Positions 39,017-43,814 of a DNA stretch of 64,000 bases are shown here, piece after piece. Position 1 is the first letter of the stretch. Every line of letters begins with the position of its first letter. Origin of the DNA: Escherichia phage RCIP0319. The DNA is taken from sequence record PV464738.1. One strand, written 5' to 3'. Position numbers and translations under genes: made by a program. Below the pieces are notes generated by a model, which did no database searches, was not told where the DNA came from, and saw only the letters and a program-made list of their open reading frames with translations.

Positions 39017-39568
39017 TTATACAGTGTACGGAGTACCGTCTTGATTCAACCGCACAATGAACTTAAGGTCGACACCGATGATTTCACGCGTATCAAAGAT
39101 CACATAGTTGTAACGACGCTGACCAGCAATATTTGGGTTGGTGTGAGAGTCGGTCACAACTTCCTGCGCAACCTGAATGCCTTCTTCTTTAAAGAACTTG
39201 CGCCATTCAGCAAGTTCAGCGGCAGTCACGTGCATACCAAGATGGCTGACCTGATTATCGTGCGCATCGAGCATGTCGATGTTTTCGTTGATCCAGTTGC
39301 AACCTTTTGTGTAGTCAAGAATTTCAAGTTCAAGAGGCTTGCAAGCGCCGCCATCGGTGCCGTTGCCAGCCTGATAGTTGAATCGCAAGTCAGCTTCGTT
39401 GGTGCAATCGTCGCGACGACCTTTAAAGTCATCAGCTTCAAATACGCGACCAGTAGCAACAACGTGATCATGGAACCATTCTGTCAGGCCGATTTTAGCC
39501 AGAAAATCCTGTGCGCGCTGAGCATCTGGAATTGACAGGGCGATTTGTTCAATTTTAAAGTGTGGCAT
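39017..39568 (-). CDS. Hypothetical enzyme (possibly VOC/glyoxalase-like), last gene of the modification operon
   Basis: 183 aa; alternating beta/alpha-like pattern; assignment weak. Confidence 0.3.
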   Translation of the reverse strand: MPHFKIEQIALSIPDAQRAQDFLAKIGLTEWFHDHVVATGRVFEADDFKGRRDDCTNEADLRFNYQAGNGTDGGACKPLELEILDYTKGCNWINENIDMLDAHDNQVSHLGMHVTAAELAEWRKFFKEEGIQVAQEVVTDSHTNPNIAGQRRYNYVIFDTREIIGVDLKFIVRLNQDGTPYTV

Positions 39569-39594
39569 TTTGTTTCCTTAATTAAATATTATTG

Positions 39595-39768
39595 ATTAAT
39601 TACTGTGTTGCCTTCTATGGAATAAGTCTCAATGGAGCCGACGCGCTCGTGGTTAATCTTTGCGTTTTCGATTCTTATTACTTCAAATCCAACGCCTTCT
39701 TGATCAATCTTCACTTCTGCCACGTCGCCAATCACTTCTACAACAACTTTGATAGTCATGATTTATTT
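39595..39768 (-). CDS. Small hypothetical protein (58 aa)
   Basis: Start overlaps the SDR gene stop; MTIKVVVEVIGDVAEVKIDQEGVGFEVIRIEN...; not in the ORF track. Confidence 0.35.
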
Positions 39769-40446
39769 CCCAAATGGAATATCAGTACCAGACATAAAGC
39801 GCCATGCGCCCGTAATTAAGATATGGCGAATGAAGTCAGCAATTACTTGCGGCTCAGTCTCCAATCCGTTCATCAATGCCTTTTTCTGGTATTCAGCGGC
39901 ATACTCAGGAGTCCAGCCGCGAGTCGCGCAAACAGCATCTTCAATCTGTTTGGACATGCCAGTACCACGTAGCTTGTTAGGACTAATAGAGAATACCGTG
40001 ATCCCGTATTTAGGCGTAAGCTCGTGAGCCATCTGCTTGCTAATCATAAGCGCAGCAGCCTTGGATGCATTATAACACAAGCTGGACGTCATAGGAATTT
40101 GCGCAGCGTTAGAAACGATATTGATCACAAAACCTTTGTTGTCGATAAGACTTTTCAGCGCGGCCTGAGTCGTGTTGACGAAAGAGAAGGCGTTGGTGTG
40201 CATAACGCGATTGAACTCTTCGTAGTTAACATCTTCGAACCAGTTGTTGGAGTTGACGCCAGCGCAGTTGATCAAGCCTTCTACGTCGTATTGAGAGAGA
40301 AGCTCTTTCATCTGTTTCGCGTTACGGATGTCATAGCCGTTCTCCAAATCAATACCGACAACTTCATGACCGTAAGCGCCAAGGGTGTCAAAAATGGATT
40401 TACCAAGACCGGAATTGCAGCCAGTTACAACAATTACTTTTTTCAT
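39763..40446 (-). CDS. Short-chain dehydrogenase/reductase (SDR)
   Basis: 227 aa; N-terminal Rossmann motif VVTGCNSGLGKS (TGxxxGxG) and SDR-like central region (NAS...YNASKAA). Confidence 0.7.
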   Translation of the reverse strand: MKKVIVVTGCNSGLGKSIFDTLGAYGHEVVGIDLENGYDIRNAKQMKELLSQYDVEGLINCAGVNSNNWFEDVNYEEFNRVMHTNAFSFVNTTQAALKSLIDNKGFVINIVSNAAQIPMTSSLCYNASKAAALMISKQMAHELTPKYGITVFSISPNKLRGTGMSKQIEDAVCATRGWTPEYAAEYQKKALMNGLETEPQVIADFIRHILITGAWRFMSGTDIPFGK

Positions 40447-40511
40447 TTATTTATCCTTTTTGGACTTCGTTTCGATGAGATAAATATAACTCATCGAAAC
40501 GCACAAGTAAA

Positions 40512-41384
40512 CTATTTATTGAAATTAATATTATGGGTGTTAACAAGACGTTCGCACATGGCGCTGTAAACACCATCATCGTGTATAGAGTCTTCGTGCT
40601 TCAGGCCGCTGATTGCGAAGCGTGTAAGCTTGACAATCTTAAGTTCGAACAGATGCCACATGTGGTAGTCTTCCGGCGTTTTCAACGTTACGCCATTAGG
40701 GAAAAGCACCTGCATAACCTGGCCTACCATCACAGCGTTATCGCCATAGACAGCGTTGCGCTCACGGAAGGTTGCTGCCATTGCATCAAGAATATCGGCG
40801 GCAGTTGCCGGAGATTGTTCAATTTCCACAGCCTTAGTCTCTTCTTGCCCAGTTGCGCTTTGATCAATTGCTAATTGTTGCACCACTTTACCTGCCTTGC
40901 AAAGATTAAATGTAAAAGCGATTTTATTTTGAGCAACGGAATTATAATACAATGCTTCATCTTGCATCCGCGCGAGTACGTCTTGTCGGTCGTCGAATAC
41001 ATTTATGATTCGATAATCGCCGTGCCGCAATGCGGCCGATAGCCATGCAGATTTCATAATAGTTGATGGACGTTTGTCGCCAGAGTCTCTCATCTTGATT
41101 TTAAATTCATCAAAAGGAAAAACATTGTCCAGACGTTCAAAAGTCACTTGTCTGTATTTTTCTGGCCTTGCAGTCCAATATTCAACCGCCTCACCGCGAA
41201 GAGATGCCGACTCTACTGCTGATGCAATGTGAGGATAGAACTGATCATAACCAATACCGCTGTGATAATCATCATAGTCTGACAACGGACCTGCCACCTT
41301 GATGCGGTCTAAGCGCCAACGGTCATCAAACAGCGTTCCGTCAAGGTCGAATACGTTTAAGATTTCGCTGTTTTTAATGCTCAT
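40512..41384 (-). CDS. HAD-superfamily hydrolase (putative nucleotidase/phosphatase) with C-terminal domain of unknown function
   Basis: 290 aa; HAD motif I FDLDGTL and motif IV-like INVFDDRQD in the N-terminal half. Confidence 0.55.
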   Translation of the reverse strand: MSIKNSEILNVFDLDGTLFDDRWRLDRIKVAGPLSDYDDYHSGIGYDQFYPHIASAVESASLRGEAVEYWTARPEKYRQVTFERLDNVFPFDEFKIKMRDSGDKRPSTIMKSAWLSAALRHGDYRIINVFDDRQDVLARMQDEALYYNSVAQNKIAFTFNLCKAGKVVQQLAIDQSATGQEETKAVEIEQSPATAADILDAMAATFRERNAVYGDNAVMVGQVMQVLFPNGVTLKTPEDYHMWHLFELKIVKLTRFAISGLKHEDSIHDDGVYSAMCERLVNTHNINFNK

Positions 41385-42225: not shown

Positions 42226-42672
42226 TTAACGGTAATTCACTAGTTGCTGATCACCAGAGAAGGTGCAATGATAAACGAATTGTGCGTTATAAAGCAACTG
42301 AAAACTTTTCTTTGGTTCATTATTAGAACTCATTGATGTAAAGATTTCTGCACCAGAACGGTTTTCACCAATCAGATTGATAAAGTCGCCAGTTGAACGA
42401 GGTTGAACGAAAGTGAAACGTTGCATCCACGGAGTCCGGTTGGCACCTTTTCCGGTGAATCCTTGAATCTGAATATTCAGTCCTTCTTGCTCATTCACAC
42501 CGATGTAAGTGGTAATCTTTGCACCAGTCGTTGCTGCGGTCTTCCCGTCCATCGCTTCGCAATCGTAAACAGCGATTGAATCGGAAGTGCGGATGGCAGC
42601 TTCAGTCGCTTCCATATACATGGTGCCGAGAATAGCAGTTGCGGCAAGCGCGATTCCAGTGATTCGTTTCAT
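42226..42672 (-). CDS. Hypothetical secreted protein
   Basis: 148 aa with signal-peptide-like N-terminus (MKRITGIALAATAILGT). Confidence 0.45.
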   Translation of the reverse strand: MKRITGIALAATAILGTMYMEATEAAIRTSDSIAVYDCEAMDGKTAATTGAKITTYIGVNEQEGLNIQIQGFTGKGANRTPWMQRFTFVQPRSTGDFINLIGENRSGAEIFTSMSSNNEPKKSFQLLYNAQFVYHCTFSGDQQLVNYR

Positions 42673-42737
42673 TTTCGTTTCCTCTATGAGTTCTGCTTCA
42701 ATGATTAAAGTATACGCCCATTGAAGCAGAAAGCAAA

Positions 42738-43733
42738 TTATTTATTAGCAATATAAGCAAATTTTTGATAGTTATTTGCTTTGATGAGTTTTTCAACTTC
42801 AACAAGGTCATGAGCGACGTCATCAAGCAAAATGTTGCGCCAGGTAGCAAATCGACCGACACTAAACACGTTCAAATCCATGGTCAGCTGCAGGAGTAGG
42901 GCGTGTCGCAAGTCTTTCGGAATGTCGACAATCTTGCCATATTTCTGGTCGACCTTTTCAACTTCTTCAAGAGCGATGTCGCTCCATGAGAGGCCAAATG
43001 CCGTCAGCACTTCGTCAACTTCTGCGCGCAACTTGATGTCACGGTAACGAGTGATGCCGCCAGCGGCTTCAACTGCAGCTTCACTCACGCTGACCAAAGG
43101 AATTGTTTCAATGATAAGCGTGTCACCAGTAATTGATGCGCGGTAAGTTCTGACGGAGTAGTCAGGGAAGTAAATTGTCTGATACAAATCACACTTACGT
43201 TTAATCTTAAAGCGGTAAACGCGAATGTTTGCTTTATCAAATGAGAAATCAAGCTTTTGATCAATCCCAGCAAGCTTCATCATTACTGGCAGCGGCGACG
43301 TGTTGATGATTGGCGTCTCGCTATAGCCGCAAAGAGTATCAACCGGAGTATTAAAGAATATGCGGTCACCCAGTTTGTCGACAAGCTGATCATAAAAGTC
43401 ATCAGGTGCAATATAACGCGTTGCAGTTTCAAGCTTCATGATTGAACGACTGCCAAACTGATTGGTGACCTTCACGGAATACATATTGGCAAGGTTGATT
43501 GGGCAATGGTCGTGGTAGTAGTTACCACGAAAATACACAGCCTTGTCAACGGTCACAGCCTTAAAAGGGATTCCGGTAATACGGCTTACTTCTTCGCCGC
43601 GAAAGCGTAGCAACGCCTTGTGCTGTTGCACTCGTTCCCCTGCTTCGTACACAACAGAGTTCGGGAAGTGACACGCTGTGATAAGTCCTGCCAGTCCGCC
43701 GCCGATAATCATTACAGGTTGTTTCATGTTCAT
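42738..43733 (-). CDS. FAD/NAD(P)-binding oxidoreductase
   Basis: 331 aa; N-terminal dinucleotide-binding motif MIIGGGLAGL (GxGxxG). Confidence 0.6.
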   Translation of the reverse strand: MNMKQPVMIIGGGLAGLITACHFPNSVVYEAGERVQQHKALLRFRGEEVSRITGIPFKAVTVDKAVYFRGNYYHDHCPINLANMYSVKVTNQFGSRSIMKLETATRYIAPDDFYDQLVDKLGDRIFFNTPVDTLCGYSETPIINTSPLPVMMKLAGIDQKLDFSFDKANIRVYRFKIKRKCDLYQTIYFPDYSVRTYRASITGDTLIIETIPLVSVSEAAVEAAGGITRYRDIKLRAEVDEVLTAFGLSWSDIALEEVEKVDQKYGKIVDIPKDLRHALLLQLTMDLNVFSVGRFATWRNILLDDVAHDLVEVEKLIKANNYQKFAYIANK

Positions 43734-43757
43734 TTGTCCTTTGTGGGTGATATGAGA

Positions 43758-43786
43758 AGTATAATAGCTAAATTATTTTACAGCAA
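43758..43786 (-). promoter_or_regulatory. Sigma70-like promoter for the minus-strand modification operon (TTGCTG, 17 bp, TATACT)
   Basis: Hexamers read on the minus strand with 17-bp spacing, about 25 bp upstream of the start at 43733. Confidence 0.4.
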
Positions 43787-43814
43787 CAAGTCATTTTATT
43801 TAGTACAGATGAAA

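Follow-up and report, generated by a model that had tools for sequence, protein, structure and literature searches.

A ThyX-like gene cluster of Wifcevirus phages as a candidate module for sugar-type thymidine hypermodification

Introduction

Escherichia phage RCIP0319 carries, within a stretch of 64,000 nucleotides of its sequence record PV464738.1 (the whole of which is called the window in the following), a cluster of seven co-oriented minus-strand genes around a divergent homologue of the flavin-dependent thymidylate synthase ThyX. Our computational analysis indicates that this cluster is probably the Wifcevirus version of a conserved module for sugar-type thymidine hypermodification of phage DNA. 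A megablast search with positions 38900-43900 returned 28 phage records, every one of them a Wifcevirus-type myovirus of E. coli or Shigella, with Wifcevirus phage FEC19 as the closest record (97.7% identity, 100% query coverage).

A first-pass annotation of the sequence had described the cluster as a self-contained operon of seven genes. All seven open reading frames (ORFs) were found where this annotation had placed them, the motifs it named (GGGLAGL, RTRx7TS, FDLDGTL and TGxxxGxG) are each present in the cluster ORFs, and the genes and families are as it described; the conserved unit, however, is not a fixed set of seven genes, but a trio with a variable slot.

Results and Discussion

A conserved core trio and a variable tailoring slot

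The conserved core of the module consists of the genes for a flavoprotein, the ThyX-like protein and a haloacid dehalogenase (HAD)-family phosphatase with a DUF6378-like domain (HAD-DUF6378), and is accompanied by a variable tailoring slot. The loci compared were 80 IMG/VR loci, collected by a profile scan, and annotated phages that infect Pseudomonas, Serratia, Xanthomonas and Pantoea. Almost every locus that extends far enough downstream has the order flavoprotein, ThyX-like protein, HAD-DUF6378, mostly a short-chain dehydrogenase/reductase (SDR) plus a vicinal oxygen chelate (VOC) protein, Pol epsilon and Pol alpha, and tblastn searches with the window proteins revealed that this gene order is kept down to 30-40% identity. 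In the Pbunavirus phages SN, F8 and 14-1 the flavoprotein (ORF65) is followed by five small ORFs, the ThyX-like protein (ORF59), a small ORF, HAD-DUF6378 (ORF57), an exonuclease and a polymerase, the trio corresponding to gp065/gp059/gp057 in F8 and to ORF65/59/57 in 14-1. The identities between phage SN and the window are ~41% for the flavoprotein, 49% for the ThyX-like protein and 26-43% for HAD-DUF6378. Serratia phage Hera resembles Wifcevirus in having the complete set, SDR and glyoxalase genes among them, and a 206-kb T4-like Rhizobium phage, which belongs to a different family, contains the trio within 7 kb, near dUTPase and ribonucleotide reductase genes.

Co-occurrence was counted over 50,697 phage genomes. 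Of these, 361 records contain the flavoprotein and 363 the DUF6378-like domain, and the two are spread over the genera in almost the same way (for the flavoprotein, Pseudomonas 292, Escherichia 26, Serratia 9, Rhizobium 8, Xanthomonas 6, Pantoea 3 and others); furthermore, the ThyX-like and flavoprotein families are widespread in metagenomes, with 769 and 1944 clusters, respectively. The slot, which lies between HAD-DUF6378 and the exonuclease gene, contains SDR and VOC genes in most loci, a small class I S-adenosylmethionine (SAM) methyltransferase (Methyltransf_11/12) in three (L053, L070 and L074) and a 270-aa unknown protein in two (L038/L039), and is empty in Pbunavirus and several others. 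Synteny alone is weak evidence, because most carriers share ancestry, and it is the Rhizobium phages and the variable slot which provide independent evidence. A fixed core with exchangeable tailoring genes corresponds to the anatomy of a biosynthetic cluster and not to that of a lone housekeeping gene.

Table 1 Features of the cluster in the window and of related loci. Positions are those of the window unless a locus or record is named.
Feature	Position	Strand	Length	Description
Flavoprotein (core gene 1)	42738..43733	-	331 aa	FAD-type Rossmann flavoprotein, MIIGGGLAGL; predicted fold of UDP-galactopyranose mutase (UGM)/protoporphyrinogen oxidase (PPOX)/amine oxidase
148-aa ORF	42226..42672	-	148 aa	Signal-peptide-like N-terminus; lineage-specific
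ThyX-like protein (core gene 2)	41381..42211	-	276 aa	Divergent ThyX-like flavoenzyme; four-Cys set
HAD-DUF6378 (core gene 3)	40512..41384	-	290 aa	Capless PNKP-type HAD phosphatase (residues 1-175), linker, DUF6378-like four-helix bundle (195-280)
SDR (tailoring gene)	39763..40446	-	227 aa	Classical SDR; adh_short 1.1e-31 (Pfam); phrog_3142
56-aa ORF	39589..39759	-	56 aa	Not conserved
VOC protein (tailoring gene)	39017..39568	-	183 aa	Probable VOC (glyoxalase/dioxygenase)-superfamily protein
Upstream hairpin	43818..43838	-		Intrinsic-terminator-like, GACCCACAC-TTG-TTGTGGGTC then T6; ends upstream TolA-like gene, separates cluster
Weak sigma70-like element	43761..43789	-		TTGTTG (43789-43784), 17 nt spacer, TATTAT (43766-43761)
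Downstream hairpin	38981..39000	-		Intrinsic-terminator-like, GGCCGTCC-TAAT-GGGCGGCC then T5; 8 pairs, 7 of them G-C; closes cluster
Class I SAM methyltransferase	14-1 (NC_011703) 6707-7207; L053:12619-13116; L070:8826-9317; L074:12474-12965		166 aa	
270-aa protein	L038:7221-8054; L039:8431-9264; L028:13590-14396		270 aa	In the slot (L038, L039); after ThyX-like gene (L028)
EndoV-type insert	L034:11913-12341			Nine further loci, among them L035, L040, L041, L042 and L045
Second HAD_PNKP protein	L017:11517-12170; L018:12211-12714; L019:11023-11817; L024:11209-11751; L028:11217-11798			

Modified thymidine in Pbunavirus and restriction resistance of Wifcevirus

In the virion DNA of Pbunavirus F8 and 14-1 new thymidine derivatives of 362 and 390 Da, respectively, stand in for about one quarter of T, in TG context (PMC12191111). 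They were described as erythrose/threose-alcohol and aldopentose derivatives without proposing biosynthetic genes, and the authors pointed out that such phages would escape homology searches with known modification genes (PMC12191111). Beyond this END nuclease preprint, which assigns no genes, no published gene assignment for the Pbunavirus modification was found in the literature searched. Both phages carry the same core trio at the same position as Wifcevirus and differ from it by the lack of SDR and VOC. By nominal-mass arithmetic, 362 equals dT (242) plus C4H8O4 (120), which would agree with a tetrose or tetritol carried by the methyl carbon of thymine and connected via a C-O or a C-C bond. 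The nucleoside of 14-1 exceeds that of F8 by 28 Da, a nominal mass fitting two methyl groups or CO. The class I SAM methyltransferase of Table 1 is encoded by 14-1 and 57 other Pseudomonas phage records and is absent from F8; as an alternative reading of the published masses, the 28 Da could represent two methyl groups rather than CO.

Pfam analysis of the seven cluster proteins and 20 other ORFs of the window gave no ThyA-type dUMP hydroxymethylase, no P-loop 5-hydroxymethyl-2'-deoxyuridine (5-hmdU) DNA kinase and no aGPT-Pplase/AADT, although very divergent versions could escape; among the 20 other ORFs there was likewise no glycosyltransferase, kinase, TET/JBP dioxygenase or aGPT-Pplase. 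Both this elimination and the chemistry, in which an enzyme of thymidylate-synthase type, a phosphatase and a flavoprotein with a sugar-mutase fold meet a T-derived sugar-like product, make the module our best candidate for the Pbunavirus modification genes; this link, as well as every chemical step discussed below, is what we infer.

The Wifcevirus phages Bas98-101 resisted all tested restriction-modification systems except EcoP1_I (PMC11990801). This resistance covers EcoRI, EcoRV, type I systems and one type III system, and the phages were reported to have 'no known genome protection mechanism' (PMC11990801). The genomes of Bas98-100 contain 36-38 EcoRI, 6-10 EcoRV, 87-93 EcoCFT_II and 82-90 EcoP1_I sites (PMC11990801, S2 table), and Wifcevirus is very sensitive to EcoP1_I and resistant to EcoCFT_II, though the numbers of these two sites are similar (PMC11990801). 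F8 DNA resists enzymes with TG-containing sites, yet it is cut by EcoRI (PMC12191111). The EcoRI difference from F8 and the EcoP1_I/EcoCFT_II pattern indicate that any Wifcevirus modification differs from the TG-linked modification of F8, either in its extent or in its sequence context. The recognition site of EcoP1_I is AGACC.

The ThyX-like protein deviates from ThyX

Residues 5-212 of the ThyX-like protein match the Pfam domain Thy1 (PF02511) with 1.4e-29, and a profile of its clade finds solved ThyX structures at 1e-10 to 1e-9 (best 1.3e-10). The protein is assigned to phrog_85 ('thymidylate synthase'), and thymidylate synthase is the name of the gene in every public annotation. With 79.7 bits it falls below the cutoff of 87.9 of the NCBIfam thyX equivalog TIGR02170, and this score together with the residue statistics of the clade bears out its initial description as a divergent ThyX and sets it apart as a distinct subfamily.

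The residue statistics refer to 70 non-redundant sequences, all from module-bearing loci. Compared with ThyX of T. maritima (TM0449) and M. tuberculosis, the window protein has the same domain of ~210 residues, and five arginines are common to both: R74, R76, R86, R159 and R186 (T. maritima R78/R80/R90/R147/R174) are present in 70/70 sequences. The differences begin at the ThyX signature. As had been noticed beforehand, the window protein has RTRx7TS in place of RHRx7S; it reads VRTRTGAYQERTSRA, and in HMMER alignments VRTRTGAYQERTSRA faces F/IRHR...S.RY of the T. maritima, T. thermophilus and M. tuberculosis enzymes. The RHR histidine is absent throughout the clade, resulting in R(T/S/N)R (T 57, S 11, N 2). 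The position of T. maritima Ser88 is mostly Thr (T 52, S 15, A 3; RTRx7T(S) in the window). Furthermore, the positions of T. maritima His53 and His178 are Ile (Ile48) and Arg (Arg190), respectively, in all 70 sequences, and that of Tyr91 is never Tyr but Val, Ala or Thr, with Ala in the window. We take the five arginines of T. maritima ThyX to be dUMP contacts; because these are kept, the ThyX-like protein plausibly still binds a uracil nucleotide. His53 presumably stacks on folate, and His53 and His178 presumably lie near folate and flavin, so that the protein plausibly deviates where folate and flavin sit in ThyX.

The Cys-rich C-terminal tail of the earlier description is real, C221, C227 and C237 being located in a C-terminal extension which ThyX lacks. 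Together with C188, which is two residues away from the R174-equivalent arginine, they behave in an all-or-none fashion (all four in 37/70 sequences, none in 33/70). This pattern suggests a metal site, and the sequences point to a Zn or Fe-S site near the active site. Also in contrast to ThyX, the clade is always paired with a second flavoprotein.

These results bear on an alternative explanation of the locus, namely an ordinary boost of dTTP supply for fast replication by a working flavin-dependent thymidylate synthase, whose neighbors would be unrelated auxiliaries or helpers (flavin reductase, nucleotidase) inherited with the replication module. The Thy1 and phrog_85 matches, the five arginines and the public annotations are what such an enzyme would show, the cluster adjoins polymerase, helicase, ligase and MazG genes, and the relatives of the HAD protein include the nucleotidases AphA and e(P4). 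dTMP synthesis does not account, however, for the loss of the signature His and of the His53 equivalent in every clade member and for the score below the equivalog cutoff, nor for the tight co-occurrence with two proteins which are not needed for dTMP and which accompany the ThyX-like protein in the unrelated T4-like phage as well. A slot occupied either by SDR and VOC or by a methyltransferase is hard to reconcile with it, and both the Pbunavirus modification and the Wifcevirus resistance would be left without candidate genes. Thus, we regard mere dTTP supply as unlikely.

A polynucleotide-type phosphatase and the likely site of the proposed chemistry

The HAD protein matches HAD_PNKP of Pfam (2e-8, residues 11-142) and exhibits both the DxDxT nucleophile motif (FDLDGTL) and a capless core similar to that of the Pnkp phosphatase. 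Structurally, the domain is matched best by polynucleotide 3'-phosphatases; its fold is also close to the class B/C acid phosphatases, with the nucleotidases mentioned above among its relatives. Unlike the 3'-phosphatase domain of T4 polynucleotide kinase and Pnkp1, the window protein is devoid of a kinase domain and is fused to the DUF6378-like bundle, which is conserved more strongly than any other part of the module. DUF6378 matches were obtained for 33/57 family members at E up to 0.1 (best 4.6e-5), the Pfam profile did not match the window protein itself, and one member scored singly reached 17.8, below the gathering score of 27.1. Two fold searches with the whole HAD-DUF6378 model yielded HAD matches only, and the DUF6378-like profile gave nothing significant against the PDB, with POU-domain matches at E ~0.5-1.4. 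The idea that this domain is a MazG-type pyrophosphatase found no support, as its hhalign comparison with the MazG-like protein of the window resulted in a probability of 1%.

Two kinds of additional genes occur beside the HAD gene in other loci. Five loci encode a second HAD_PNKP-type phosphatase between the flavoprotein and the ThyX-like protein, and four of these five phosphatases carry a zinc-ribbon-like CxxC...CxxC insertion; a kinase domain in them was considered and dropped, as none contains a Walker A motif. In 10 distant module-bearing loci the ThyX-like and HAD genes are separated by an inserted homologue of the T4 EndoV-type pyrimidine-dimer DNA glycosylase (Pyr_excise, 9.5e-13), which may serve repair or take part in the pathway by acting on DNA.

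The first-pass annotation had suggested a possible module for a non-canonical pyrimidine nucleotide with the participation of the HAD hydrolase and the MazG-like protein encoded at 30616-31209 (minus strand). In the corresponding purely pre-replicative pathway a non-canonical pyrimidine dNTP would be made and, while these two enzymes remove the canonical nucleotide, be incorporated by the phage polymerase. Such a route would suit ThyX-family enzymes, which act on mononucleotides, a HAD fold near the class B/C acid phosphatases, which are nucleotidases, and the presence of the MazG-like gene. This gene, whose product matches Pfam MazG weakly (0.011), was found in 888 phage records from many unrelated groups, among them many Streptococcus, Vibrio and Acinetobacter phages in which the flavoprotein was not found; consequently, it is not module-specific, does not co-vary with the module and has to be given up as a partner. 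A replacement of about one quarter of T in TG context, as in Pbunavirus, is furthermore unexpected from pool replacement, the structural matches of the HAD domain favor polynucleotides, and the EndoV-type insert hints at DNA-level chemistry. We therefore consider a purely pre-replicative pathway quite improbable. The TG context, the polynucleotide-type HAD protein and the occasional DNA-glycosylase insert together argue that the chemistry takes place at least partly on DNA. Of the original proposal, DNA modification as such has thus become much more plausible, with respect to the core in common with Pbunavirus and the Wifcevirus resistance, while a purely pre-replicative nucleotide route has become improbable and the role of MazG is not supported.

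The flavoprotein

The AlphaFold2 model of the flavoprotein (pLDDT 87.7) shows the UGM/PPOX/amine-oxidase fold, and the family contains many invariant Arg and Lys residues. The protein belongs to phrog_4828 ('unknown function'). No Pfam family, including GLF, was matched even at E up to 10, neither its sequence nor its profile matched solved UGMs in HMMER searches, and PDB sequence searches for a name of the protein gave nothing significant.

A UGM-like mutase next to an SDR, a VOC epimerase and a phosphatase could also be read as a sugar-nucleotide or envelope pathway, which alters host surface glycans or virion protein glycosylation and stands next to the ThyX-like gene by coincidence. The missing GLF match, the Pbunavirus core, which does without SDR and VOC, and the absence of any glycosyltransferase, flippase or nucleotidyltransferase by Pfam among the cluster proteins and the 20 other ORFs do not agree with such a pathway. 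As the flavoprotein, in addition, always travels with the ThyX-like gene and inside the replication module, we judge this explanation very improbable.

Proposed pathway

According to the favored reading, sugar-type hypermodification of thymidine, the ThyX-like enzyme would perform flavin chemistry at C5 of a uracil/thymine nucleotide, making or re-making a reactive, electrophilic 5-methylene intermediate. Ordinary ThyX reduces its 5-methylene intermediate to the methyl group; here, a sugar or sugar-phosphate-derived group would be captured at the C5-methylene instead of hydride. The UGM-fold flavoprotein may activate or hand over the sugar group, or may recycle flavin. The capless PNKP-like phosphatase would remove a phosphate from the adduct, possibly on DNA; the removal of a phosphate would agree with a sugar-phosphate donor. 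SDR and VOC, in the versions of Wifcevirus, Myosmarvirus and the Xanthomonas phages, would then oxidise, reduce or isomerise the attached polyol, and since Pbunavirus carries neither of them, the Wifcevirus product would differ from the Pbunavirus product. The modified bases would block restriction enzymes.

The kind of system, phage DNA hypermodification, is already known, and the enzyme set is unlike that of the described thymidine pathways. Thymidine hypermodification in the phages M6, ViI, PaMx11, SP10 and PhiW-14 likewise consists of a substituent at C5 of T with partial T replacement, and is brought about by a dUMP hydroxymethylase, a 5-hmdU DNA kinase, aGPT-Pplase/AADT and tailoring enzymes (PMC5889632, PMC8989533). 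Its logic is alike, a core with variable tailoring genes near replication genes, and PaMx11 gp47 sets a precedent for a flavoenzyme acting on DNA-borne groups. In contrast to the phages of the 5-hmdU route, the Pbunavirus group is sugar-like and not derived from amino acids or polyamines, and the C5 chemistry proposed here would be of ThyX type and not of ThyA type. A conceptual parallel, for which no sequence relationship is claimed, exists in the tRNA uridine C5 modification by MnmEG/TrmFO. In MnmEG-type chemistry a flavin-borne one-carbon unit yields a C5 exocyclic methylene, which is captured by glycine or taurine instead of hydride (PMC8989533). As the first-pass annotation had already suspected, the gene combination appears to be unrecognised, no functional description of it having been found in the literature searched.

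More tentatively, and with less confidence than in a hypermodification module as such, we propose a new route, in which a ThyX-derived flavoenzyme that has ceased to be a plain folate-dependent methylase, a UGM-fold flavoprotein and a polynucleotide-type phosphatase attach a polyol, derived from a sugar or sugar phosphate, to the thymidine C5 unit without 5-hmdU kinase, aGPT-Pplase, TET/JBP or glycosyltransferase, in which interchangeable tailoring genes diversify the product and by which Wifcevirus DNA may carry a new derivative. If this is true, a further-tailored thymidine derivative would explain the broad restriction resistance of Wifcevirus.

Several points weigh against a hypermodification module. 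The strong Thy1 match and the complete set of arginines mean that the ThyX-like protein may simply make dTMP, and the predicted fold of the flavoprotein is not uniquely UGM-like. All carriers except the Rhizobium phages also share the replication module, so the synteny could be largely a matter of common descent. The module is without an obvious reader of the TG motif and without an obvious glycosyltransferase. The phenotypes differ, F8 being cut by EcoRI and Wifcevirus being EcoRI-resistant in vivo, and the Wifcevirus resistance could originate from a protein inhibitor. The Pbunavirus chemistry comes from one preprint and from nominal masses (PMC12191111). Finally, gene differences between F8 and 14-1 were tried as a discriminator and were not decisive, as many genes differ by 10-25% genome-wide; HAD-DUF6378 is the most diverged enzyme gene of the module stretch (80.8%) in this comparison, which was based on greedy ORF calls and is noisy in a GC-rich genome.

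With respect to its use, the analysis provides a short gene list for two puzzles, the sugar-like thymidine of Pbunavirus and the restriction resistance of Wifcevirus, and predicts that Wifcevirus DNA is modified, and otherwise than Pbunavirus DNA. Wifcevirus phages are candidates for the biocontrol of E. coli O157, and the range of clinical strains open to them, as well as the defences by which they are stopped (END nucleases and type IV enzymes, for instance), depends on how their DNA is protected. If the pair of ThyX-like and UGM-like proteins performs the chemistry, covalent flavin catalysis would be seen in a new role, on the bases of nucleic acids, and a new set of enzymes would become available for the production of modified DNA.

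Tailoring genes and passenger ORFs

In the SDR the cofactor motif TGxxxGxG and the motifs NCAG and YxxxK, the latter with the catalytic residues, are intact, the sequence reading VTGCNSGLG, IVSNAA and YNASK, and an Asp after strand beta-2 suggests NAD(H) as the cofactor. In related loci the gene is almost always found together with the VOC gene. The earlier assignment of the latter as possibly VOC-like draws on its family: the window protein matches Glyoxalase_4 weakly (0.0047, below the gathering score), and 15/32 family members match, with 7.5e-6 as the best value. The InterPro-based annotation of the phages Mansfield and Hera concurs, and a PDB sequence search gave no significant match. Invariant columns of the family are Q8, E82, H109 and D167, which may be the metal ligands of the protein. 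The metal ligands of human glyoxalase I are Gln/Glu/His plus a second acidic residue. For the 270-aa protein a GT-A glycosyltransferase had been guessed from LxxPxNK and VDD(D/N); neither Pfam nor PDB profile searches support this guess.

The 148-aa and 56-aa ORFs are without Pfam, PHROG or NCBIfam matches and were seen only in the closest relatives (Wifcevirus), tblastn across related loci giving none elsewhere. Both probably stand outside the pathway, the 148-aa ORF as a passenger. Its signal-peptide-like product sits within a cluster of cytoplasmic enzymes, and unrelated ORFs of exactly 148 aa were observed at the same position in two other loci (L009 and L050). The smaller ORF, which had been given as a 58-aa protein, encodes 56 aa; as a conserved partner it was dropped, for the small ORF which Serratia phage Hera carries in its place is not similar to it.

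Boundaries and neighboring genes

The stem-loop proposed downstream of the cluster was recovered as a terminator-like hairpin at 39000-38981, behind which Pol III epsilon-like and alpha-like genes follow, and the annotation of phage Mansfield places terminators at both corresponding hairpin positions. The sigma70-like promoter proposed upstream is weak: the element agrees with the consensus in 8/12 positions, does not reach the threshold of the scan and carries no statistical weight; in the cluster region, promoter-like sites were no commoner than in shuffled sequence. Downstream of this element there is an AGGA, and then the flavoprotein gene with its start codon(s). The stop codon of the ThyX-like gene and the start of the HAD gene overlap by 4 nt.

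Directly upstream of the cluster a 281-aa 'TolA protein' is encoded (43866-44711, minus strand), as at the same place in Pbunavirus (ORF66). Its long N-terminal part is rich in Lys, Glu and Ala, and its C-terminal part is conserved (phrog_4765, unknown function); the plus-strand ORF of 354 aa (43620-44684) is an antisense shadow of this gene. Two hypothetical proteins encoded between spanin and helicase (31782-32642 and 32702-33259, minus strand) match Pam3_Gp34 (4e-86) and DUF7307/Pam3 gp33-like (2.6e-37), respectively, which links this phage group to cyanophage Pam3.

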